Positions 176-22,687 of a stretch of 39,573 nucleotides of DNA are shown one piece after another. Positions within the stretch are counted from its first letter, which is position 1, and every line of letters begins with the position of its first letter. Position numbers and translations under genes: made by a program. This stretch comes from a virus. Below the pieces are notes generated by a model. The model was not told the origin of the DNA, did not search any database, and saw only the letters and a list, made by a program, of their open reading frames with translations. The DNA is taken from IMG/VR virus record IMGVR_UViG_3300033075_000869, one strand, 5' to 3'.

Positions 176-652
176 ATGGGCAAGAAAAATAACAAGGATC
201 GTAAAAAGACGATATCATGTGGATGTCTCGTTTATCGACATCCCACCGCCGAATGGAATGATACACAAGTGCTACTCGTAAAACAATTCGAGCACAAAGA
301 AAATTGGGGCGTTCCTAAGGGACATATTGATCGTGGTGAGACCTACGAGCAATGTGCAATGCGAGAAACTCGTGAAGAAACTGGAATCGAAGTTGAACTA
401 GGACTACGACTACCGGATGCTCGAGCAGTCTACAAAAAGGAAGACAAAACTGTTATAACGTATCTTGCTGTTCAAAGTTGCAATAACACGTTGAACTCTG
501 GTCATCCTGATTCTGAAGTGTTTGCTGCTGAATGGTTTAGTGTTGTTGAGTTGCCACAAATTCATTCATACCAACAGGAACTTGTTCGAAATGGTCTAGA
601 CGTTATTAGACTTCAATTTGAGGCTGCTAAGAAATGTTCGACGACAGAATAG
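176..652 (+). CDS. Nudix hydrolase
   Basis: Nudix box GHIDRGETYEQCAMRETREETGIE (Gx5Ex7REUxEExGU). Start taken at internal ATG 176 (MGKKNN...); the track ORF begins at 107. Confidence 0.75.
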   Translation: MGKKNNKDRKKTISCGCLVYRHPTAEWNDTQVLLVKQFEHKENWGVPKGHIDRGETYEQCAMRETREETGIEVELGLRLPDARAVYKKEDKTVITYLAVQSCNNTLNSGHPDSEVFAAEWFSVVELPQIHSYQQELVRNGLDVIRLQFEAAKKCSTTE

Positions 653-888
653 AAGACGCAATTCAAGCAGTGTTCAAATATGCCGGTCATGTTGATTCTT
701 GGATTGTTATCAAGAAAGAGCTTCTGAAACAACTATCGCATAATGACCGTACGGCATTTTCAACGCGACATCCTATTACGAAAAAACAACAAACAAATGA
801 CTTTGAAAGAACAATTGCTCAACGTTGGGAAGAATTGTCTGGGCGGAAGGTACTATTTAGTTCTGATGAAATCAGTTCAGGATCATAA
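634..888 (+). CDS. hypothetical small protein (84 aa)
   Basis: Protein-like ORF filling the gap between the Nudix gene and the next gene. No recognisable motif. Confidence 0.35.
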   Translation: MFDDRIEDAIQAVFKYAGHVDSWIVIKKELLKQLSHNDRTAFSTRHPITKKQQTNDFERTIAQRWEELSGRKVLFSSDEISSGS

Positions 889-3037: not shown

Positions 3038-3452
3038 TCAAGTTTTCCCAAAACAAACAGATCAAATTTATCCGACATATTCTAAGATCAAGTACCAAAT
3101 TGATCAATTGGAATGTTTTCCAACGTGGGAAGAATTTCTAGAATATGAATGTGTTAGATGTTCTGGTAAATTTAATATGTTTGAACGAAACAATATTCAA
3201 CGTTATGCATATGACGTTGGCCTATATAGTCTCGTGAACTGGCTTCAACGGTGTAAAGAGCTCGGGCATTCATATACAAAAATGTATGATCCAGCATTGA
3301 AACATTATTCCAGACTTCATGGCCCACGTGAAGGGTGGATAACATCGGATCTAAAGAAAAAGTTGTTTGTTCGTGAACTTGAAGCACAACGCTCTGAACT
3401 TGAGCTAAAGCTACAAGCTATTCAAGACAAACTTGAAGAAGTTAAACCATGA
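3030..3452 (+). CDS. hypothetical protein
   Basis: ORF of 140 aa. Its stop overlaps the next start (ATGA). Confidence 0.5.
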   Translation: MTSQVFPKQTDQIYPTYSKIKYQIDQLECFPTWEEFLEYECVRCSGKFNMFERNNIQRYAYDVGLYSLVNWLQRCKELGHSYTKMYDPALKHYSRLHGPREGWITSDLKKKLFVRELEAQRSELELKLQAIQDKLEEVKP

Positions 3453-3712
3453 AATATGGTTCTTTTACGCCTCGACCTGGCGATCTATTCACATGGCATT
3501 ATAACGATAACGACAAACAGTGTGTGGCAGATTTGTGGATTATTGGCGGTTACGTTCCGTCTGTAGAGGTAAATTTGCTCATTGCCTTGACTGATCGATT
3601 TATTTGGTGGGTTCAAAATGGCAGCTTTTTGTTCAGGGTTATCGATCAGCCAGCGCAAACAAGTGCAGAACCTTATTTGAGAAAAATTCATCCACGAATT
3701 CAGGTTGTGTAA
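3449..3712 (+). CDS. family A small paralog (MKxGxFTPRPGDLFTWHY...IHPR)
   Basis: One of 5 paralogs sharing N-terminal FTP(K/R)PGDLFxWHYDxDD and C-terminal F(I/L)xxRxD...HPR. The paralogs differ at synonymous sites, which indicates purifying selection. Confidence 0.6.
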   Translation: MKYGSFTPRPGDLFTWHYNDNDKQCVADLWIIGGYVPSVEVNLLIALTDRFIWWVQNGSFLFRVIDQPAQTSAEPYLRKIHPRIQVV

Positions 3713-4917: not shown

Positions 4918-5190
4918 ATGAAAACGGGTCCTTTTACACCAAAACCGGGTGATTTGTTCAGTTGGTATTATGACACAGATGATACGCCATGTCATAGTTA
5001 TGATCAACTATTCTCAATGTCTATGCGTCTCTGGGTACCTTGTGCAGGCGTTAATACGCTTATTTCATTGACTAATAGCAATATATTTTGGTTGAATGAT
5101 ACGCATATTTTTAATGCACGTATTGATAATACGTCACCATGGCCGAATACGAAGCAAGGTCGTTCGATTTATCCGCGAAAACTAACATGA
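4918..5190 (+). CDS. family A small paralog
   Basis: MKTGPFTPKPGDLFSWYYDTDD...IFNARID...SIYPRKLT. Confidence 0.6.
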   Translation: MKTGPFTPKPGDLFSWYYDTDDTPCHSYDQLFSMSMRLWVPCAGVNTLISLTNSNIFWLNDTHIFNARIDNTSPWPNTKQGRSIYPRKLT

Positions 5191-5579
5191 AAACAAATCC
5201 GAATAACTGGGGGTCTACAAGCGTCGTAAATTACAACTGGTTTCACACTGATGTTGATCATGCTGACATTGAAAAATATGTTCGTTCACCTGAAGAAGAT
5301 GCTGCGCTACAATTCTTGTCACGTGATATTCATTTCGTTATGAGACCATGTCTAGAGAAGTTTAAGAAGTTCTTTGGACGTCAGACATATACATGGGTTG
5401 GTTCAGATTGTAGGTTTTGGGTTTGGGAATTTGACGAACAGATTCGTGTATTTGTTAATTCCCATAAAGGTATTTGTGTTGAACTACGACATGACCTGCA
5501 ACCAAAAGCTGCATATGCAGCAATGATCAAATTTGTAAAGGAAATCAAGGAAAACCAAGAAAGTGAGCTATATGCTTGA
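5187..5579 (+). CDS. hypothetical protein
   Basis: ATG at 5187 overlaps the previous stop (ATGA). The track ORF starts at 5139. Confidence 0.45.
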   Translation: MKTNPNNWGSTSVVNYNWFHTDVDHADIEKYVRSPEEDAALQFLSRDIHFVMRPCLEKFKKFFGRQTYTWVGSDCRFWVWEFDEQIRVFVNSHKGICVELRHDLQPKAAYAAMIKFVKEIKENQESELYA

Positions 5580-6350: not shown

Positions 6351-7382
6351 ATGAACAAAGTCATTGAATCTTGGAAGTGGCCTTCCATTGAAAGTTTTTA
6401 CAACGTTCGTAAAACGATTCAAAAATATGGCGTCGCCGCTGGATCGATTGTTACGTATCGTGCAAAGGTGAAATTGCATGGTGCATGCGCTGCTTTTTCA
6501 ATTGATGGCGATAGTGCCCGTGGTGCTACGCTTCAAACGTATTCTCGAACAGCGATTGTTACACCCGAGAGTGATCCCATGGGATTTTCTAGGTGGATCG
6601 AAAATCGTCGTGATCAATTGTTGTCGTTGCATCAACCTGGAACGAGTATCATTGTATACGGCGAGTGGACCGGTCAAGGTATTCAAAAGGGTGTTGCTGC
6701 GAGTCAAGTCGAACGTTTCTTCGCTGTTTTCGCTGCTCGAGTGTCTCGAGTGGAAGACCCAATGAGTGAGGAATTCATTACTGATCCGGATGAACTTAGG
6801 GTCTACGTTCAGGGTGTTCCGGGTTGTTATGTGTTGCCTTGGTTCAATGACGGTGAAGAATTTGTTGTTCCATGGGAGGCAGATTCTGATTCTTTTGAGA
6901 ATGTTATTTCGAGAATGAACTCTCACGTTGCCGCAATTGAGGCATGTGATCCGTTCGTGTCGAAAACTTTTGGTGTTGCAGGTATCGGCGAAGGTCTCGT
7001 ATTTTATCCAGTGTCAGAACAACATTGTTCATTTGGCGATTTTTCTTATCTCTGCTTCAAGGCAAAGGGTGAGAAACACAAAACGATTGTTCATGCTGCA
7101 CCGGTCCAGGCTGAGCCGACAGTCATTGAAGGTCTTGATGAATTTGTTCGCAATGTGTTGCCGTTGTCTAGGCTCGAACAAGGTGTTCGGGCAACAAACG
7201 ACGGGTCTGACATTGCAATGATGGTCAATTTGGGACCGTTCTTGAAATGGATTGGTCTCGATCTAGAAAAGGAAACCGTGGAAGAGCTACGTGTCTCTGG
7301 TCTTGATCGCAAAGTGGTCTTCAAGAAGTGCAATGAATATGCTCGCAATTGGTTCATGAACGAATCGAGGAAACTGTTATGA
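6351..7382 (+). CDS. RNA ligase, Rnl2 family
   Basis: Motif I KLHG (T4 Rnl2 KIHGTN) and motif IV YGEWTGQGIQKGV (Rnl2 FGEFAGPGIQKNV). Confidence 0.75.
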   Translation: MNKVIESWKWPSIESFYNVRKTIQKYGVAAGSIVTYRAKVKLHGACAAFSIDGDSARGATLQTYSRTAIVTPESDPMGFSRWIENRRDQLLSLHQPGTSIIVYGEWTGQGIQKGVAASQVERFFAVFAARVSRVEDPMSEEFITDPDELRVYVQGVPGCYVLPWFNDGEEFVVPWEADSDSFENVISRMNSHVAAIEACDPFVSKTFGVAGIGEGLVFYPVSEQHCSFGDFSYLCFKAKGEKHKTIVHAAPVQAEPTVIEGLDEFVRNVLPLSRLEQGVRATNDGSDIAMMVNLGPFLKWIGLDLEKETVEELRVSGLDRKVVFKKCNEYARNWFMNESRKLL

Positions 7383-7443
7383 AACTTTCTACTTACAACT
7401 GAAATACAGTAGCAGAGGGATATTTCGCTTCATCCACGAAAAT

Positions 7444-7683
7444 ATGTCAATAGAACGTAAATACGAATCAATCATAGCCGACCTAACGCATCAGCTATAT
7501 CGTGCTCGACTTATTTCGCGTGGTTGGAAGAAACTAGCGAAACTTGAGCGAGCAACAATCGTCCAAGCAGCGGTTGAATCTGCTGCTGGTGATTGGGATG
7601 ATGATGGTCAAAGAGATCGCGTTATTCAACATCATCTTGAGAAGTTTTCAAGCATTAGAGAAACATTGCGAAATCCGAAATGA
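7444..7683 (+). CDS. hypothetical protein
   Basis: ORF of 79 aa. Its upstream intergenic region carries a copy of the CTTCATCCACG motif. Confidence 0.45.
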   Translation: MSIERKYESIIADLTHQLYRARLISRGWKKLAKLERATIVQAAVESAAGDWDDDGQRDRVIQHHLEKFSSIRETLRNPK

Positions 7684-7967
7684 AGACCGGTCCTTTCACC
7701 CCGAAACCTGGCGAACTATTCCAATGGCACTATGACATAGACGATAGTATATGTCAACCTGATGATAAACTGTGGGCAAAGTCTCCTTATCGTTGGATCC
7801 CGTGCGTCGACAACAGCAATTTGCTCGTTGCTCTAACCGCTACGGATATTTGGTGGGTGAATAGTCAAGGTTTTATTCATACATACGTTGATTGCTTGCA
7901 ATATCGCGGCGGGCGCGATCAAGCCGCCACAGAAAATGTCTATCATCCACGCATAGTTGAAATATGA
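7680..7967 (+). CDS. family A small paralog
   Basis: MKTGPFTPKPGELFQWHYDIDD...FIHTYVD...YHPRIVEI. Contains a GC-rich insertion-like segment (GGCGG...CCGCC) near the C-terminus. Confidence 0.6.
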   Translation: MKTGPFTPKPGELFQWHYDIDDSICQPDDKLWAKSPYRWIPCVDNSNLLVALTATDIWWVNSQGFIHTYVDCLQYRGGRDQAATENVYHPRIVEI

Positions 7968-8314
7968 AAAAAGGTCTGTATACACCACGTCCTGGAGATC
8001 TGTTCAATTGGCATTATGATCATGATGATTCAAAATGTAAAGATGACGATAAAGTTTGGTCGTCGTCTATGAAATGTTGGGTACTATGCAACGGTATTAA
8101 CATTCTAATCTCACTAACCGAAACTGATATGTGGTGGATTAATAATCAGAGCTTCATCCACGCGCGCGTGGATAAAATTCCGTCGGCCGCCTGGGTAGGC
8201 GTTCCTCGGCGCTGCTTCATCCACGCGCGCGTGGATAAAATGTTTACACCGACTAGTACTCATATCGCCGAGCCTGGCGAGCGAGCTTTGTCTACGCATA
8301 ATGAAATAACATGA
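7964..8314 (+). CDS. family A small paralog with internal 60-bp tandem duplication and aberrant C-terminus (possibly decaying)
   Basis: FIHARVDK is encoded twice by duplicated palindromic DNA. The C-terminus lacks the family's HPR motif. Confidence 0.45.
   Translation: MKKGLYTPRPGDLFNWHYDHDDSKCKDDDKVWSSSMKCWVLCNGINILISLTETDMWWINNQSFIHARVDKIPSAAWVGVPRRCFIHARVDKMFTPTSTHIAEPGERALSTHNEIT
8153..8238. repeat. Tandem direct repeat of TTCATCCACGCGCGCGTGGATAAAAT (2 copies, 34-bp GC-rich spacer), each holding a perfect 18-bp palindrome ATCCACGCGCGCGTGGAT
   Basis: Exact 26-mer at 8153-8178 and 8213-8238. The palindrome is perfect. The segment is locally GC-rich in an AT-rich genome. Confidence 0.7.
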
Positions 8315-9090
8315 CAACCAAAAATCTATTGACTCGCATGAAAGGCTATGAAGAAGCATCAAGGATGATTCTTCCTGGTCGTTCACCTGTTATTCTCCGT
8401 CTCGACGGAAAGTCGTTCTCAACGTATACTCGTTCCCTGGGAACTTTTAATCACTCATTCGCATGGTTGATGAAAGAAACAGCGGTTGCTGTGTGTAAGC
8501 ATATCCAGGGCGCAACGTTCGCTTACACCCAATCTGACGAAATATCAATTTTGATTCACTCTTATAAGAAGCTGAATTCTGAACCGTGGTTTGAAAACTG
8601 TGTTCAGAAGATGGTTTCTGTTTCGTCTTCAATTGCTGCAGTTACATTTACGTTGGGATCACCACAACTTTTTAAGGATGTGTTGGCCGAACCTCGGGCC
8701 GAGGATGCCCGCCCGGCATATTTTGATGCCCGTGTATTTGTCGTTCCAGAAAATGACGTTGTGAATTATTTCGTCTGGCGTCAACAAGATGCAACACGAA
8801 ATGCAATGTCTATGTGGGCTCGTTCACTTTTCTCAGCGAAAGAGATTCATGGGAAAAACTGGCAACAGATGCGTGAGATGTGTGAAACCCGTGGTGTTAA
8901 GTGGGACGCTCTTTCTCCTCAATTTACACGTGGAACCGGAATATCACGCGTCGATGGTCATTGGACAATCGACGATGAAACGCCACTGTTTACTACGAAC
9001 AGGGACTACATCGCTCGGCATCTCGAACTAGAAGAAGGCTTACGTGAAGCTGTATTACGGCCCACGAGATGGCCCACGTATTACCCGTGA
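8311..9090 (+). CDS. Thg1-like protein (tRNA-His guanylyltransferase family, 3'-5' nucleotidyltransferase)
   Basis: RLDGKSFSTYTR and AYTQSDEISIL motifs typical of the Thg1/TLP palm domain; about 260 aa. Confidence 0.7.
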   Translation: MTTKNLLTRMKGYEEASRMILPGRSPVILRLDGKSFSTYTRSLGTFNHSFAWLMKETAVAVCKHIQGATFAYTQSDEISILIHSYKKLNSEPWFENCVQKMVSVSSSIAAVTFTLGSPQLFKDVLAEPRAEDARPAYFDARVFVVPENDVVNYFVWRQQDATRNAMSMWARSLFSAKEIHGKNWQQMREMCETRGVKWDALSPQFTRGTGISRVDGHWTIDDETPLFTTNRDYIARHLELEEGLREAVLRPTRWPTYYP

Positions 9091-10667: not shown

Positions 10668-10922
10668 ATGAAAACCGGTCTATTTACTCCGCGACCGGGA
10701 GATTTGTTCACTTGGCATCATGATTCAGACGATGGTTTGTGTCGTCGTGGTGAAAAGATTTGGTCTTCATCTAAGAATGATTGGGTGTCATGTGTTGGCA
10801 TCAATATTCTAATCTCACTAACTGAAACTGATGTGTGGTGGATTGATAAAATTAATCTTATTCACTCGCGATATGGTGAAATTGATATCAATCATCTTCA
10901 TCCACGTACGAATAAAACTTGA
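10668..10922 (+). CDS. family A small paralog
   Basis: MKTGLFTPRPGDLFTWHHDSDD...LIHSRYGEID...HLHPRTNKT. Confidence 0.6.
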   Translation: MKTGLFTPRPGDLFTWHHDSDDGLCRRGEKIWSSSKNDWVSCVGINILISLTETDVWWIDKINLIHSRYGEIDINHLHPRTNKT

Positions 10923-11477: not shown

Positions 11478-12285
11478 GAGTGTATTTAGCAACTTTACTG
11501 CAAATTTTGAAGGCAGCGTAAGTCACATGTACTTGGACGTTTTGGGCCTTGTAACTGTTGCTCGAGGAAATCTAATTGATCCGATCACAATGGCACTTGG
11601 TTTGCCTTTTGAACGTAATGGCATTAGAGTTTCAAGAGATGAAATTGCTGCTGAGTGGCGAACAGTTAAGGCACGTCAAGATCTTGCAAAGGTTGGCGCC
11701 CGTTCGTTTAAATCAATTACATCGCTACGCCTGTCGACAAAGGGAATTGATGATCTTGTTATTTCTAAGTTGCTAGAAACAGAAGCATATCTCAAGAAGC
11801 GATTTCCAGAATTTGATACGTGGCCGGCAGATGCTCAACTCGGTGTTCTTAGCATGGCATGGGCGATGGGCGCAGGATTCAAATTCAAGACTTTTGAAGC
11901 TGCAGTTCTAAAACGTGATTTCGTTGGTGCAGCGGCTGCATGCAAAATGAATGAAACCGGTAATCCCGGGTTGATTCCTCGAAATGCAGCCAACAAATTG
12001 CTCTTTTTGAATGCTGCTCGTGTTCTAGAGTCTCCGGAAGCATACAAGATCGAAACGTTGTATTGGCCGGATCGCCTTCCAGATGTTCCGGTGCAAAAGG
12101 AACCTGATCATATCGATGTTACGTTTGTTGATGAAGTTCCACAAGTCGATTCGGGTGATGCTGTTACAAATCCTCGTGTAGATATTGTCGTACCAGAAGA
12201 TACGGGTGTTGTAAAATCACCTGGGCTGTTTGATCTAGTTATGGGATTCTTTAAATTTCTACTTTCACTTCTAGGTAAAAAATGA
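11461..12285 (+). CDS. T4-type (GH24) lysozyme with C-terminal extension ending in an amphipathic/hydrophobic helix
   Basis: FEGSVSHMYLDVLGLVTVARG aligns residue-for-residue with T4 lysozyme E11/D20/T26 ([20 protein letters not shown]). C-terminus GLFDLVMGFFKFLLSLLGKK. ATG 11461 verified. Confidence 0.65.
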   Translation: MHPIVKSVFSNFTANFEGSVSHMYLDVLGLVTVARGNLIDPITMALGLPFERNGIRVSRDEIAAEWRTVKARQDLAKVGARSFKSITSLRLSTKGIDDLVISKLLETEAYLKKRFPEFDTWPADAQLGVLSMAWAMGAGFKFKTFEAAVLKRDFVGAAAACKMNETGNPGLIPRNAANKLLFLNAARVLESPEAYKIETLYWPDRLPDVPVQKEPDHIDVTFVDEVPQVDSGDAVTNPRVDIVVPEDTGVVKSPGLFDLVMGFFKFLLSLLGKK

Positions 12286-13106
12286 TAGACATAAAACTTG
12301 GTGGTTGGCGACCAGATTCTACGCTTGCAGAGCATAATCCCAATGACAATTACATGTTTGATGATCATGAGACAAAAATTCTCTCTGCAGGTTCAAACGT
12401 ATATGATCCTGGCATTGAACACAACGGGATTCTTGATCTTCGAAAGTGGTGTTCACCCGTTGAACACCAGAGTGCTGCTGGGTCTTGTGTTGGCAATGGC
12501 GTCGTTGGTGCTCTAGAATTTCTACAGATTCGAAACGGTCAACCATATCAAGACTTGTCACGCTTGTTCGTATACTACAATTCACGATTGATGCACAAAA
12601 GTCAAGAGAAAGATGAAGGAACTTATATTCATCTTGCTTTTGGAACATTGTCTTCATTGGGTACGTGTTCAGAAGAAAAATGGCCTTATGATCTCACGAA
12701 ATTGTTTATTAGACCGTCATGGGGATCATATCGAGAAGCATATCCTAACAAAATCGACAGTTATTACAGCATCGGTGGCACCGGTCAAACACGAATTGAT
12801 TTTATCAAGCGTGCCCTAAGAGCTCAACACGTTGTTGTGTTCGGAATGATTGTTGATCAAGCATATATGAATTATGCCGGCGGACGAGTTGATATGCCAC
12901 AGAAAACCCGAGTGAATTCTGGAGGGCATTGTCAAGTTATTGTTGGTTATGATGACAATACGCAGTGTTGGATTGTACGAAATTCGTGGGGCACAGGTTG
13001 GGGCGACAAGGGATATGCATATGTTCCATATGCATATCTAGATGCATCTGATGCCAATGATTTTTGGGTTCCCTTTTTGCCCGGTTCGTCAATGGAGAAC
13101 GGTTGA
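12282..13106 (+). CDS. papain-like (C1 family) cysteine peptidase
   Basis: QSAAGSCVGNG (Q...GSCW catalytic Cys), GGHCQVIVGYD (catalytic His) and NSWGTGWGDKGY (papain NSWGTGWGENGY). Confidence 0.75.
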   Translation: MIDIKLGGWRPDSTLAEHNPNDNYMFDDHETKILSAGSNVYDPGIEHNGILDLRKWCSPVEHQSAAGSCVGNGVVGALEFLQIRNGQPYQDLSRLFVYYNSRLMHKSQEKDEGTYIHLAFGTLSSLGTCSEEKWPYDLTKLFIRPSWGSYREAYPNKIDSYYSIGGTGQTRIDFIKRALRAQHVVVFGMIVDQAYMNYAGGRVDMPQKTRVNSGGHCQVIVGYDDNTQCWIVRNSWGTGWGDKGYAYVPYAYLDASDANDFWVPFLPGSSMENG

Positions 13107-16996: not shown

Positions 16997-17226
16997 TTGA
17001 ATTTACTGGATCTAATCCACGTGTTCCTCTGTACAGATATTCTGAAGGAGATCCATCTGGAGGACCAGAACATGATTTCTATTTGTACATGAATACAACT
17101 TTCATGATTGTTTCGGCAGTAAATACAACCCATCGTGAATCACACGTAGATTACTTTGTAATAACTGAAGGTGGTGGTATGGGTTGGACAATGTGGTATC
17201 CTAAAAATTTCAAGATTATCAAATGA
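16957..17226 (+). CDS. PGT-motif small paralog (IAPGTLCYA...MGWTMWYPK)
   Basis: Paralogous to 16700-16996. Confidence 0.5.
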   Translation: MVIAPGTLCYATLIEFTGSNPRVPLYRYSEGDPSGGPEHDFYLYMNTTFMIVSAVNTTHRESHVDYFVITEGGGMGWTMWYPKNFKIIK

Positions 17227-18179
17227 AACATCCAAATCCAAATATGTTGTTGCACATTGCCATGGGCGATGCATATGCTACTGCAGTCGAATATGTTAAG
17301 CGAGAAAAACACGCTCAACTGTATGATGCTGCACTGCGATTTCAAACATATCTACAACACCCTACGCACCTAAAACTCAAACCGGGTATGTATACCGATG
17401 ACACACAGCAAAGTATTGCTGTCGTAGAAGTTTTGTTGGGAACACAAGCACCACGTGTTCCAGATTTTCTAAATGCATTTTACGACGTATTCAAACGTGA
17501 CCCTCGTGATGGATATGCTCGTGGATTTCAAGGTCTAATTGAATCTGTTGAATCACGTGATGAATTTCGTTCGAGGATCATTCCAAACTCTAATAAAAAT
17601 GGCGCAGCAATGCGCTCTGTCCCAATTGGCGTCATTAAAGACGTAAATCAACTTGTCGATATCGCTGGGGTTCAAGCCACTGCTACCCATGCAACATGGG
17701 GTGGAATCAACAGTGCAGTCGCTGTTGCTCTTATGTCGCATTTTGCGCTATATGATCATCGTAATTTTCTATACATGAGAGAATGGTGTGCACGATATTC
17801 GTCTGCATTTCAGTTTTTTGGGTCACCATGGTCTGGTCCGGTCGTTAGTGACCCAAAAAATCCCAAAGACATGGGTGTTGGTATGAATACTGCATGGGCT
17901 GTTTGCACATTGCTCGAACAAGAAACATCATTGATGGGAATAATGCGGCGCGTAATTGAATGGGGCGGTGATACTGATTCTGTTGCAGCAATCGCGTGGG
18001 GAATAGCGGGAGCTCGTTACGGTCATGAAATTCTACCAAGCTTCCTAGAACACGATCTTGAACCAGGTTCTCGATATGGCGTTCAATTTCTAAAAGACCT
18101 AGGTGAACGCTTGATGACGGTTGAAAAATTGTCTTATGTAAAACACCCATTATTTGTGGTAAAGTTACTTATACTCTAA
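17223..18179 (+). CDS. ADP-ribosylglycohydrolase (ARH/DraG family)
   Basis: N-terminal GDAYATAVE, TDDTQQS and C-terminal GGDTDSVAAIAWGIAGARYG signature motifs. Confidence 0.8.
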   Translation: MKHPNPNMLLHIAMGDAYATAVEYVKREKHAQLYDAALRFQTYLQHPTHLKLKPGMYTDDTQQSIAVVEVLLGTQAPRVPDFLNAFYDVFKRDPRDGYARGFQGLIESVESRDEFRSRIIPNSNKNGAAMRSVPIGVIKDVNQLVDIAGVQATATHATWGGINSAVAVALMSHFALYDHRNFLYMREWCARYSSAFQFFGSPWSGPVVSDPKNPKDMGVGMNTAWAVCTLLEQETSLMGIMRRVIEWGGDTDSVAAIAWGIAGARYGHEILPSFLEHDLEPGSRYGVQFLKDLGERLMTVEKLSYVKHPLFVVKLLIL

Positions 18180-19746: not shown

Positions 19747-20682
19747 ATGATTGGTGTTTGTTGTCAGTGGCTTGAGCGTATTAAACGTCCAAGATCTGGT
19801 GATTATCAATATGTGAACGTTGTCGATGAACGTTCACTTCAACTTGGTAGGTACATAGCAGGAAAATATACACCTGAGCAAATTAGTGCTACGTACTTGC
19901 ATAACATCAATAATTTGATACGTATGTTGCCACGAATTTCACGTTCTGGCATACGTTTGTTTCGAATATCTTCTTCGTTGTTTCCCCTCGCTGACAAAGT
20001 TGATCGTGCGCATTGGGATAATGATGCTGTTCGAACACAATTGAAATGTGTTGGTGATATTATTAAGTCACTTCAACTACGTGTTACAACGCATCCTGGC
20101 CAATTTTGTGTTTTGTCGTCAGATTCTGATCGCGTAGTTGAAAATTCATTCAATGAATTGGCGCTTCATGGTTGGATATTTGACGTTATGGGTCTTGATC
20201 GTTCACCACAATATGCTATCAATATTCACGGTGGTAAGTCAGACAGGTCGTCTAGGCTTATTGAACAGATCAAATCTTTGCCACAGTCTGTTTCGTCACG
20301 ATTGACACTTGAAAATGACGAGTCTGCATATTCACTTATTGATTTGTTGACTGTACACAAAGAAACCGGTGTTCCTGTCGTTTGGGATTCGCATCATCAT
20401 ACATTCAATGATGACGGAATTTCTCTTAGCGATGCCTATACATTGTCAAGGCTAACGTGGCCATCTGGCGTTATGCCACTGCAACATATTAGCAATACCG
20501 AGCCGAGTTCAAGTGATGGTTCATTTACAGAACGTCGTAAACACAGTAATATGATTCATTATATTCCGGATGCTCAACTTCAAGGTCTGCGTGATGGCAA
20601 CGTTGCGTGTGAAATTGAGGCAAAAATGAAAAATATCGCTGTTGACCATATGGTTAATATCTTTGGTCTGACACGATTATAA
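19747..20682 (+). CDS. uvdE: UV damage endonuclease (UvdE)
   Basis: TTHPGQFCVLSS, INIHGG, RLTLENDE and VVWDSHHH match the UvdE TIM-barrel signature. Confidence 0.75.
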   Translation: MIGVCCQWLERIKRPRSGDYQYVNVVDERSLQLGRYIAGKYTPEQISATYLHNINNLIRMLPRISRSGIRLFRISSSLFPLADKVDRAHWDNDAVRTQLKCVGDIIKSLQLRVTTHPGQFCVLSSDSDRVVENSFNELALHGWIFDVMGLDRSPQYAINIHGGKSDRSSRLIEQIKSLPQSVSSRLTLENDESAYSLIDLLTVHKETGVPVVWDSHHHTFNDDGISLSDAYTLSRLTWPSGVMPLQHISNTEPSSSDGSFTERRKHSNMIHYIPDAQLQGLRDGNVACEIEAKMKNIAVDHMVNIFGLTRL

Positions 20683-21025: not shown

Positions 21026-22687
21026 ATGTTTAATGACATTGACGTTCCCAATACAACAAAAGTACTATTTCATAATGAAGCTAGAAGAAAATTGTATGTT
21101 GGACTTTGTGTTGCTGCTGAAGCAGTTACATGTACACTTGGACCACGTGGTCGAACAGTGCTAATTCAAAGCAAGGGCGGTCCACCAACTGTGACCAAGG
21201 ACGGTGTTACAGTTATTAAGTCAATTAGGCTCAAAGATCCTATTGAAAAAATGGGTGCTGAACTAATACGAGAAGCAGCGTCACAAACCAATGAAGTGGC
21301 TGGTGATGGGACTACAACGGCTACGGTTCTGACCCACTCGATGGTCAAGGAAGGCCTCAAACTATTGGAAGCTGGGTATTCTGCCAAGGAGTTGTGCGAG
21401 GGTATTCAATGGGCTCGAGAGTTGGTTGATAACGAACTAAAGAAATCTGCACGTGTTTTGAACACTTCAGCTGAAATTGCTCAGGTAGGAACTATCAGTG
21501 CGAACGGTGATACGAAAATTGGTGAATTGATCGCTGAAGCAATGGAAAAAGTTGGCCGTGACGGTATCATTACCGTTGAAGACGCAAAAGGAATGGCAAC
21601 GACCCTTGAAGTTGTAGAAGGTATGCAATTTGAACGTGGGTATATGAGCCCATATTTTGTAACCAATCCAGAACGAATGAATGTTTCATATCAAGAAGCA
21701 CTAGTTCTTGTAACTGACAAGAAACTATCTGGATTGCGAGAGCTAGTTCCAGTTCTAGAAAAGGTTGCAGGTTCGCGTAAACCGTTGCTCATTATTGCAG
21801 ATGACGTTGAAGGTGAAGCACTTCAGGGTTTGGTCATCAACCGTGTTAACGGTAATCTACCGCTAGTTGCCGTGAAAGCACCGGGATATGGTAAACATCG
21901 TGACGAGTTGCTAGCCGATATTTGTACATTGACAGGTGCTAAACTAGTTTCGTCTTCAACTGGCGTTAAGTTTGATACGTTGACACTAGCTGATTTGGGT
22001 GTTGTAAAACGCCTGGTTGTTGATGCGAAGTCAACAACCCTTGTGGGCTCAGGTGCAACCAAATCGAAAATTGATGAACATGTTGCAAATTTGCGCACTC
22101 AACTAGAAGATGTTACTATTTCCACAGAAGAAGTTGTGAAGCTAAAGACGAGAATCGCGAAGCTGGCGTCGGGTGTTGCGGTCATTCGTGTCGGCGGTGC
22201 AACAGAAGTTGAAATGATTGAGCGTAAATACCGTATTGAAGACGCACTAAATGCAACACGAGCAGCCGCAGAAGAAGGCATTGTAAAGGGCGGTGGAATG
22301 GCACTTGTTGATGCGTATCATAGTCTTGCGTCAACCCTTGCTGGTCTTTCATCTAATACAACTGTGCTAGCAGGTGCAAATATTGTTATGGCGGCTTGTC
22401 TTGCACCACTTAGCAAGATTGCGGCAAATGCCGGGAAGACGCCTGAAGTCATTCTAGAACGTGTTGATTCTGGACGCTTCCTATCTGATATTCAATACCG
22501 CGGTTGGGATGCTTCGTCTGGAAAAGACGTGGATATGTTCCAGGCAGGGATTATCGATCCTGTTAAGGTTACACGTACAGCTCTTAAAAATGCTGCATCT
22601 GTTGCAATTACGTTTCTAACACTTGATGCAGTTGTAGTTGAAGAACAATCGTCTAACAAAGAAGATAATCTTGAAAAACACGCCTGA
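21026..22687 (+). CDS. groEL: chaperonin GroEL
   Basis: Full-length collinear match to GroEL: [45 protein letters not shown] and others. Confidence 0.95.

Follow-up and report, generated by a model that had tools for sequence, protein, structure and literature searches.

A recurrent insertion site in a phage gene family resembles a translated, one-spacer CRISPR array

Why would a small gene in a phage genome of 40% GC contain the same GC-rich palindrome twice, with a GC-rich segment between the copies? We addressed this question in a window of 39,573 nucleotides (39.6 kb) from an uncultivated phage, whose gene content includes an RNA ligase, a Thg1-like enzyme, a flap endonuclease, Cpn60 and UvdE. 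As a preliminary description of this DNA had reported, the 18-nt perfect palindrome ATCCACGCGCGCGTGGAT is present twice (Table 1). We found no third copy in the window with up to three mismatches allowed; the expectation from shuffled sequences is 0.02 copies, and none of 100 shuffles reached two. Each palindrome is the center of a longer exact direct repeat, GCTTCATCCACGCGCGCGTGGATAAAAT, which had been given as 26 bp and in fact measures 28 nt: 5 bp, the 18-bp palindrome, and another 5 bp, symmetric about the dyad. The two copies recur with a period of 63 nt (21 codons) and enclose the spacer TCCGTCGGCCGCCTGGGTAGGCGTTCCTCGGCGCT. The GC-richness of this spacer had been correctly recognized, but its length is 35 nt rather than 34 bp, as the string given earlier misses the first spacer base and extends 2 nt into the second repeat. 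Both strands encode the peptide FIHARVD, again as described: twice in the plus-strand ORF 7964..8314 and twice in a minus-strand ORF, 8114..8386.

The plus-strand ORF, A2, is one of five paralogs in the window that we call family A (Table 1). Their common plan is an N-terminal domain of ~65 residues, the motif FIHxRxD, a variable segment, and a C-terminal xHPRxxx-stop. A2 begins with the conserved N-terminal small all-beta domain, continues through repeat-spacer-repeat, the tail and a degenerate terminal repeat, and has a stop codon that overlaps the ATG of the Thg1-like gene. In every window paralog the C-terminal motif is encoded by TTCATCCACG, which corresponds to the first half of the 28-nt repeat, shifted by one base in reading frame. 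The repeat therefore has two coding values: frame 0 gives FIHARVDK, and frame -1 gives LHPRARG followed by TAA. Read in frame -1, copy 2 would supply the C-terminus typical of the family. Because the insert is 35 nt long and the unit 63 nt, copy 2 instead falls in frame, and the ORF reads past LHPRxRG-stop, through copy 2, the 43-nt tail and the degenerate terminal repeat, to end at 8314. The earlier view that the palindrome replaces this paralog's normal C-terminus thus holds in part: the C-terminus is altered, but not by substitution of foreign sequence, since copy 1 is the native FIHxRxD strand. In the AF2 model of A2 (pLDDT 78.6), FIHAR lies in a beta-strand of the small all-beta domain, its predicted state in the family A protein. 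No Pfam family matched the A2 protein, comparison of the model with PDB folds gave only insignificant SH3-like and Tudor-like matches, and deposited phages contained neither a DNA relative of the region nor a relative of the protein.

Table 1. Positions of the array, the paralogous loci and related features in the window
Feature	Position	Strand	Description
A2, array-bearing gene	7964..8314	+	116 aa; from ORF list, paralog alignments and AF2
Repeat copy 1	8151..8178	+	28 nt, palindrome 8156-8173; frame 0 gives the conserved strand S-FIHARVDK
Spacer	8179..8213	+	35 nt, 74% GC (window, 40%); no copy in window or compared loci
Repeat copy 2	8214..8241	+	identical to copy 1, palindrome 8219-8236; in-frame FIHARVDK
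Tail	8242..8284	+	43 nt, ~57% GC; at position of older spacer
Degenerate terminal repeat GCTTTGTCTACGCATAATGAAATAACATGA	8285..8314	+	homologous to ends of A1 and of the L051 gene
A1 (gene 7680..7967)	7870..7967	+	degenerate repeat 7870-7897, spacer-like segment 7898-7939, degenerate terminal repeat 7940-7967
A3 (gene 10668..10922)	10855..10922	+	degenerate repeat, shortened 12-nt spacer, degenerate terminal repeat
A4 (gene 4918..5190)	5105..5193	+	degenerate repeat, 33-nt spacer 5133-5165, degenerate terminal repeat; period 61 nt
A5 (gene 3449..3712)	3624..3712	+	degenerate repeat, 33-nt spacer 3652-3684, degenerate terminal repeat; period 61 nt
Orphan half repeat GCTTCATCCACGAAAATATG	7427..7446	+	between RNA ligase gene and gene 7444

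The other paralogs carry degenerate versions of the same architecture (Table 1). The spacer-like segment of A1 is 42 nt long and 60% GC, and it holds the quasi-palindrome at 7905-7930, one of the GC-rich sequences that the preliminary description had likened to the array; this one does occupy the equivalent spacer position. The likeness fails for a second, at 8690-8715: this patch of the Thg1-like gene has counterpart residues in the solved homolog 4kgk, and it is therefore not an insertion.

We gathered relatives by pattern scans and protein searches of related phage contigs, one of which is an IMG/VR viral genome. The element is not unique to this genome, as the preliminary description had allowed it might be: related contigs contain between one and three copies of the 28-nt repeat, and their GC-rich spacers, 32-36 nt long, are unrelated. 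In contig L003, GCTTCATCCACGCACGCGTGGATGATAC occurs three times without change, at periods of 61 and 63 nt, and the two spacers so enclosed are mutually unrelated. L024 carries two copies at a period of 61 nt. In L042 two copies are exact and a third has diverged, and L043 bears an array in each of two family A genes. L042 and L043 represent one and the same locus, which lies downstream of the flap endonuclease gene, but they have no spacer in common and differ in spacer number. A 31-nt exact repeat occurs twice in L058, a distant family member from a phage of 59% GC. Two or three exact copies were present in each of L003, L024, L038, L042 and L054. Where the window has the orphan half repeat, L040 and L043 contain a complete, array-bearing family A gene, and the tails orthologous to that of A2 are 33 nt long in L003 and L040. 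Across all paralogs, arrays and genomes compared (~360 kb), we found no second copy of any spacer.

The origin of the arrays can be read from alleles that differ by a single unit. In one 90% identity cluster (P0002) we identified four alleles of one gene with 100% identical DNA flanks. One of them (L039) is empty, with one intact repeat followed directly by the tail; the others (L002, L038 and L040/L041) have the form repeat-insert-repeat, with three unrelated inserts of 36, 33 and 33 nt. At a second locus, again with 100% identical flanks, an empty allele (L057) pairs with alleles that have a 33-nt insert and a duplicated 28-mer (L054-L056). Near-identical genomes thus differ by gain or loss of whole units, as CRISPR arrays do (L039 versus L002, L038 and L040; L057 versus L054-L056). 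These comparisons define at least four independent events with known empty sites, with inserts of 33-36 bp, and the identical 28 nt is duplicated in each. An insert of prespacer size together with a precise duplication of repeat length is the expected product of Cas1-Cas2. Insertions have also occurred at repeats already preceded by a spacer, and an imperfect palindrome has likewise served as a target. The empty and occupied alleles bear out the earlier suggestion of insertion with duplication of a hairpin-forming palindrome, and show that the 28-bp repeat is a recurrent insertion site, hit independently in many lineages and within one phage population.

We compared the 12 distinct spacers that lie between intact repeats. 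They are unique and of constrained length, as in CRISPR arrays: six are 33 nt, five are 35 nt and one is 36 nt. The modal insert of 33 nt gives a modal unit of 28 + 33 = 61 nt. The spacers are mutually dissimilar and 60-76% GC, in genomes of 39-44% GC. They show a 3-nt periodicity in GC content (mean phase range 0.319, versus 0.236 +/- 0.033 in shuffles, p ~0.01), as pieces of high-GC coding sequence would, and the phase of this periodicity is independent of the phage reading frame. Segments between degenerate repeats are AT-richer (25-60% GC), which fits either greater age or a different origin. Exact-match scans of small databases found no protospacers in phages, plasmids or the related loci compared. 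A search of IMG/VR with five spacer cores also found no protospacer, with one 18-mer match (L049) that stopped short of the flanks.

The array lies inside a reading frame, and family-wide spacing suggests that it is translated. A family profile search yielded 198 clusters at 50% identity, and a motif census covered 184 proteins, and in 79 of these a HARVDD-like motif lies beyond residue 50. Eighteen proteins have at least two such motifs; in them, 18 inter-motif intervals are 20 or 21 residues (60 or 63 nt), and a single longer interval, of 40 residues, covers two units. The -1-frame xPR motif forms the end of 38 proteins, and its spacing implies a repeat period of 61 or 64 nt in 37 of them and 67 nt in one. 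The period of units inferred from proteins is thus 0 or 1 mod 3 in 56 of 57 cases, and inspection of the DNA showed that the sole unit in the third frame results from a 1-nt deletion in a degenerate copy. The near absence of periods of 2 mod 3 indicates translation of the array, with selection on its reading frame. With an insert of 33 or 36 nt the protein gains 11-12 new residues followed by LHPRxRG-stop, and inserts of 32 or 35 nt keep the frame and add a module of 20 or 21 residues. This location, within ORF 7964..8314, differs from the non-coding, leader-adjacent setting expected of a CRISPR array, and we found no recognizable leader.

The repeat is also constrained as a nucleic acid. The rarer synonymous codon is used at five of the six stem residues (TTC ATC CAC CGC GTG), with GAT the common Asp codon; the joint probability of this choice under window codon usage is ~2e-4. 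The stem codons are unchanged in the unmutated copies of at least eight arrays, and the only variable codon position is the third base of the Ala codon (G, A or T), which lies in the hairpin loop. We identified compensatory changes that preserve the dyad in the third copy of L042 (AACCATGCGCGCATGGAT), in L051 at position 6563 (ATCCACGTGCACGTGGAT) and in paralog 1 of L003 (ATCACGCATTTTTGCGTGAT). Single repeats fold as RNA with energies of -9.3 to -16.2 kcal/mol, and two repeat copies can pair together at -51.6 kcal/mol. Codon choice and compensatory changes together show that the hairpin is constrained at the nucleic-acid level.

We considered several simpler roles for the hairpin and rejected them. 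A programmed -1 frameshift or translational hop between the copies has no slippery site to act on, meets a stop in the -1 frame of copy 1, and is not needed because the 63-nt unit is in frame. An intrinsic terminator does not fit the sequence that follows the hairpin (AAAAT on the plus strand, GAAGC on the minus strand), and scans detected neither a terminator-like nor a promoter-like site within the array. Rfam searches matched no CRISPR-DR family with either the single repeat or a 41-nt query, and the other matches were weak and at chance level (a ZTP riboswitch at E = 0.23, and microRNAs), with none for the single repeat; we therefore set aside a known RNA family. Scattered GC-rich mini-insertions, of the type of Rickettsia palindromic elements or mitochondrial GC clusters, were rejected as well: only six 24-nt windows reach 75% GC, which a rough binomial estimate suggests is near the chance level.

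The window repeat resembles type I CRISPR repeats. Aligned with the enterobacterial type I-E repeat of E. coli and Salmonella, whose string we confirmed against published literature, it is identical at 18 of 20 aligned bases (TCCACGCGC--GCGTGGATAAA versus TCCCCGCGCCAGCGGGGATAAA); both mismatches belong to one compensatory pair, and the alignment score was equaled by at most 1 of 3000 shuffles. The Xanthomonas citri type I-C repeat is matched as well: over its 3' two-thirds, 18 of 20 nt agree with the phage repeat (PMC9504256). No alignment was obtained with a type I-F repeat. The phage repeat shares the type I-E layout of a 5' TTC, a GC-rich stem of 6-7 bp, a short loop and a 3' GGATAAA, but its loop is 2 nt shorter and its 5' part is different.

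The geometry of insertion is similarly close to that of type I-E systems. Cas1-Cas2 cleaves in a staggered manner with duplication of the repeat, and the E. coli protospacer is 33 bp (PMC10011333); as in type I-E, a duplicated 28-bp repeat and a 33-bp insert add up to 61 bp in the phages (PMC10011333). Two features depart from this system: inserts of 35-36 nt are common, compared to a range of 31-34 nt in E. coli type I-E, and phage units have no conserved PAM-derived 29th base, nor did we detect a conserved PAM-derived base at the spacer edges.

We searched for a CRISPR system to which the array might belong. None of the 71 window ORFs is a cas gene by PADLOC or Pfam, nor do the Pfam assignments for ~100 kb of related loci include one. 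A host array with the same repeat core was not found among one genome per GTDB species and JGI metagenome contigs, with a pattern that demanded the phage-specific 5' arm and so detects identical repeats only. The GTDB scan gave 14 hits, all of them isolated chance matches in GC-rich genomes, and two hits in Oligoflexales were inspected and proved unrelated; in the JGI metagenome scan for the repeat core, 16 of 18 hits were due to chance.

On balance, we favor the reading that the 3' part of this small phage gene holds a one-spacer CRISPR-like array whose spacers are written by a type I Cas1-Cas2. The integrase would cleave one strand at one end of the repeat and the other strand at the far end, giving a 28-nt stagger; a foreign fragment of measured size would be ligated at the cut 28-bp repeat; and gap repair would duplicate the repeat. 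The enzyme would be a type I Cas1-Cas2 of the host, or one of the phage that was not seen, and the repeat would be a mimic of its target. We propose Cas1-Cas2 because of the stagger, the ruled insert length, the duplication of the repeat, the modal unit of 61 bp and the likeness to type I-E and I-C repeats; its identity is inferred by analogy with these systems.

A Cas-independent route acting at the palindrome, either phage-encoded or part of general repair, is possible but doubtful. A cruciform or hairpin would be nicked at its base on both strands, filler DNA would be captured, for example fragments of a degraded GC-rich host chromosome, and fill-in would duplicate the palindrome; the phage may thereby diversify the C-terminal peptide of family A. 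This route accords with the outcome of the searches made, which found no cas genes, host array or protospacers, and with the symmetry of the duplicated segment about the dyad (5+18+5). The center of one duplicated copy is flipped, as template switching at a hairpin predicts, and an imperfect palindrome was also targeted. Strong frame selection and a wide, conserved family further suggest that the peptide product matters. However, filler capture leaves the tight insert ruler (32-36 nt, mode 33) unexplained, and the boundaries of the duplication are identical across independent events. The repeat is like type I-E and I-C repeats well beyond shuffles, and we identified no candidate enzyme for such a route.

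An exchange of cassettes, in which the 28-nt repeats serve as homology arms for recombination among paralogs, co-infecting relatives or a host CRISPR array whose repeat is similar, seems distinctly improbable. Each genome does contain several paralogs with the same flanking motifs, recombination between repeats with loss of one unit would yield 'empty' alleles, and spacer gain by recombination with host arrays has been discussed for leaderless phage arrays (Medvedeva et al., PMC6858448). Exchange would nonetheless leave the origin of the new sequences unexplained: no spacer is common to any two of the paralogs, arrays or genomes in the ~360 kb, new spacers are far more GC-rich than the older segment of any paralog, and no host array with an identical repeat was found in GTDB species or JGI metagenomes.

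The two mechanisms offered in the preliminary description, a slipped-strand or tandem duplication and a small element of MITE/REP type, are very improbable. They would account for a short insert flanked by a direct repeat and for a hairpin-forming sequence. The spacer itself is not duplicated and is without any other copy; it is no copy of adjacent sequence, and Tandem Repeats Finder calls no array at the site, which speaks against slippage. Inserts are unrelated between loci and differ with each genome and allele, and therefore no element sequence exists: only the 28-nt target is conserved and duplicated. To our knowledge, a 'target-site duplication' of 28 nt is also far beyond the products of transposases, which counts against the MITE/REP reading. 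An assembly artifact, given that short repeats can mislead assemblers, is scarcely credible when the window allele was recovered from both JGI and Logan with an identical protein in SRR32380201 (L001), the same allele is present in L040 (ENA) and L041 (JGI), the P0020 allele lies on nine contigs of which the six examined come from different runs, and the structure is consistent over more than 10 lineages.

Viral mini-arrays are a close precedent. In close relatives these arrays occupy the same position with different spacers, indicating turnover (Medvedeva et al. 2019, PMC6858448), and the known examples are intergenic, have repeats identical to those of the host, and mostly target related viruses (review PMC11656645). 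Mini-arrays consist of one or two spacers flanked by CRISPR-type repeats, in viruses that lack cas genes (PMC6858448; PMC11656645), and the phage arrays share this form in the loci analyzed. Unlike the mini-arrays, which are intergenic and often leader-bearing, the array described here is in an ORF and apparently translated, and its first repeat is a conserved strand of the protein. In addition, our searches found no identical host repeat and no target, and the spacers are GC-rich compared to the related phages.

Phage-borne mimics of CRISPR repeats without cas genes are known, too, as solitary repeat units or RNA anti-CRISPRs (Racrs; Camara-Wilpert et al. 2023, PMC10651486). The empty alleles L039 and L057 may be compared with them in holding a single intact repeat, but this repeat is within coding sequence. 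Racrs are small non-coding RNAs, often located just downstream of a promoter, whereas the phage repeat is coding and gains spacers. Off-target integration of spacers outside arrays is known as well (Nivala 2018, as cited in PMC11788318 and PMC7054753), and so far as those citing papers describe the resulting neo-CRISPR loci (Nivala, Shipman and Church 2018), spacer-sized DNA was inserted outside a bona fide array, as in the phages. Unlike the neo-CRISPR loci, the phage events occurred naturally and repeatedly, and their site is conserved over a family of ~200 clusters. The neo-CRISPR insertions reportedly arose on overexpression in E. coli and at scattered sites.

Two further kinds of sequence offer partial parallels. 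Rickettsia palindromic elements, yeast mitochondrial GC clusters and mitochondrial byp elements are short GC-rich or hairpin-forming DNAs found in intact ORFs. They have a conserved sequence of their own, unlike the phage insert, which differs each time, while the hairpin is the duplicated target. Diversity-generating retroelements produce a hypervariable C-terminal segment in phage proteins. Here, in contrast, there is no template repeat, reverse transcriptase or adenine-specific substitution, and whole segments of 32-36 nt are inserted. Our data are best fit by a CRISPR-type repeat-spacer unit within a coding gene, akin to viral mini-arrays and neo-CRISPR loci, and there is a real possibility that its mechanism is new.

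What the array does for the phage can be framed only speculatively. It might be a mini-array that feeds crRNAs to a type I system of the host; a repeat mimic that serves to titrate Cas6, Cas5 or the integrase, by analogy with Racrs (PMC10651486); a decoy for adaptation; or a device that diversifies the C-terminus of the family A protein. The production of crRNAs and the titration of Cas proteins or the integrase might also operate together. Under the decoy and mini-array views, the translated product would have to stay in an acceptable frame. The usual role of mini-arrays in targeting close relatives (PMC11656645) is disfavored because the spacers are GC-rich and unmatched. It is also conceivable, though we think it unlikely, that the gene family has domesticated CRISPR-type capture, or uses a hitherto undescribed integrase of matching geometry, to insert foreign DNA into its own ORF. 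If so, the dual-frame repeat would turn each capture into either a new C-terminal peptide of 11-12 residues or an in-frame module, and the family would represent a new, insertion-based generator of diversity, or a decoy that diverts the integrase from the host array.

The literature we searched contains no description of a repeat-spacer array that is also translated under frame selection. If Cas1-Cas2 is the enzyme, this would be, given that literature, the first such translated array found, and these phages would be natural, polymorphic recorders of CRISPR adaptation on viral DNA. If no Cas enzyme is involved, the inserts would point to a ruler-type insertion mechanism not previously known. 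The GC-rich spacers probably sample the host or its mobile elements, and could tie this uncultivated phage group to its hosts. Through these phages, it should be possible to test the purpose of viral repeat mimics, be it to produce crRNAs, to titrate Cas proteins or to act as a decoy for the integrase, how much of a repeat and leader an integrase requires, and whether spacer capture can be a source of protein novelty.

In the window, the genes of family A, a family of small phage proteins, are flanked by an RNA ligase gene and a gene for a Thg1-like tRNA(His) guanylyltransferase. The RNA ligase adjoining family A is found again even in L058, a distant phage contig of 59% GC. The interval from the RNA ligase gene to the gene starting at 7444 holds an orphan half repeat, GCTTCATCCACGAAAATATG. 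At the matching position, the related phages L040 and L043 carry a complete family A gene with a CRISPR-like array, in which 28-nt repeats alternate with spacers, and the half repeat therefore looks, from this sequence comparison, like a deletion scar. In L040 (10312-10339; the same in L041, and on the reverse strand of L025), the second repeat differs from the first in that its 2-nt centre is flipped, from CGCTCGCG to CGCGAGCG. This flip may have arisen by a hairpin template switch while the gap was filled.

The Thg1-like gene contains two small GC-rich palindromes (8685-8720), CCTCGGGCCGAGG and ATGCCCGCCCGGCAT, and the preliminary description had likened those at 8690-8715 to the palindrome of the array. 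Their encoded residues align with residues present in a solved homologue, which rules out an insertion at 8685-8720; these palindromes appear to have no relation to the array. Two more short GC-rich hairpin-like patches are listed in the table.

The orthologue of the family A gene A1 (7680..7967) contains an in-frame TAG in L025 (about 560-680, reverse strand) and in L039, and may thus be a pseudogene. Separately, on a related 130-kb phage contig (L052/L053, 3236-9654), gene calling reports three ORFs for the DNA polymerase III alpha subunit, with two further ORFs among them, each with weak intein-splicing hits.

Features of the window and their coordinates
Feature	Position	Detail
Hairpin-like patch	44-68	CCAGTGC..GCACTGG
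Hairpin-like patch	2915-2946	CCCGG..CCGGG
RNA ligase	6351-7382	
Orphan half repeat	7427-7446	
Thg1-like protein	8311-9090	E = 5e-46 to PDB 4kgk
Papain-like protease	12282-13106	
ADP-ribosylglycohydrolase	17223-18179	
UvdE endonuclease	19747-20682	
Cpn60/TCP-1 chaperonin	21026-22687	
Vault-like ORF	32914-35520 (- strand)	MVP_shoulder (1.5e-30), Vault_3, Vault, Band_7

One ORF, of 868 aa, has matches to domains of the major vault protein, to our knowledge an unusual find in a phage. The GC island in which it lies (33001-35500) has 50% GC, against 33-41% in the surrounding DNA, and the ORF looks like a recent horizontal acquisition. The window also encodes an IF-1-like protein (Pfam eIF-1a, 8.5e-23) and four auxiliary proteins whose genes are uncommon in phages: the chaperonin, ADP-ribosylglycohydrolase, UvdE and papain-like protease. 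Only one of the ten window ORFs tested had a PHROG match, so reference sets cover this group of phages poorly.
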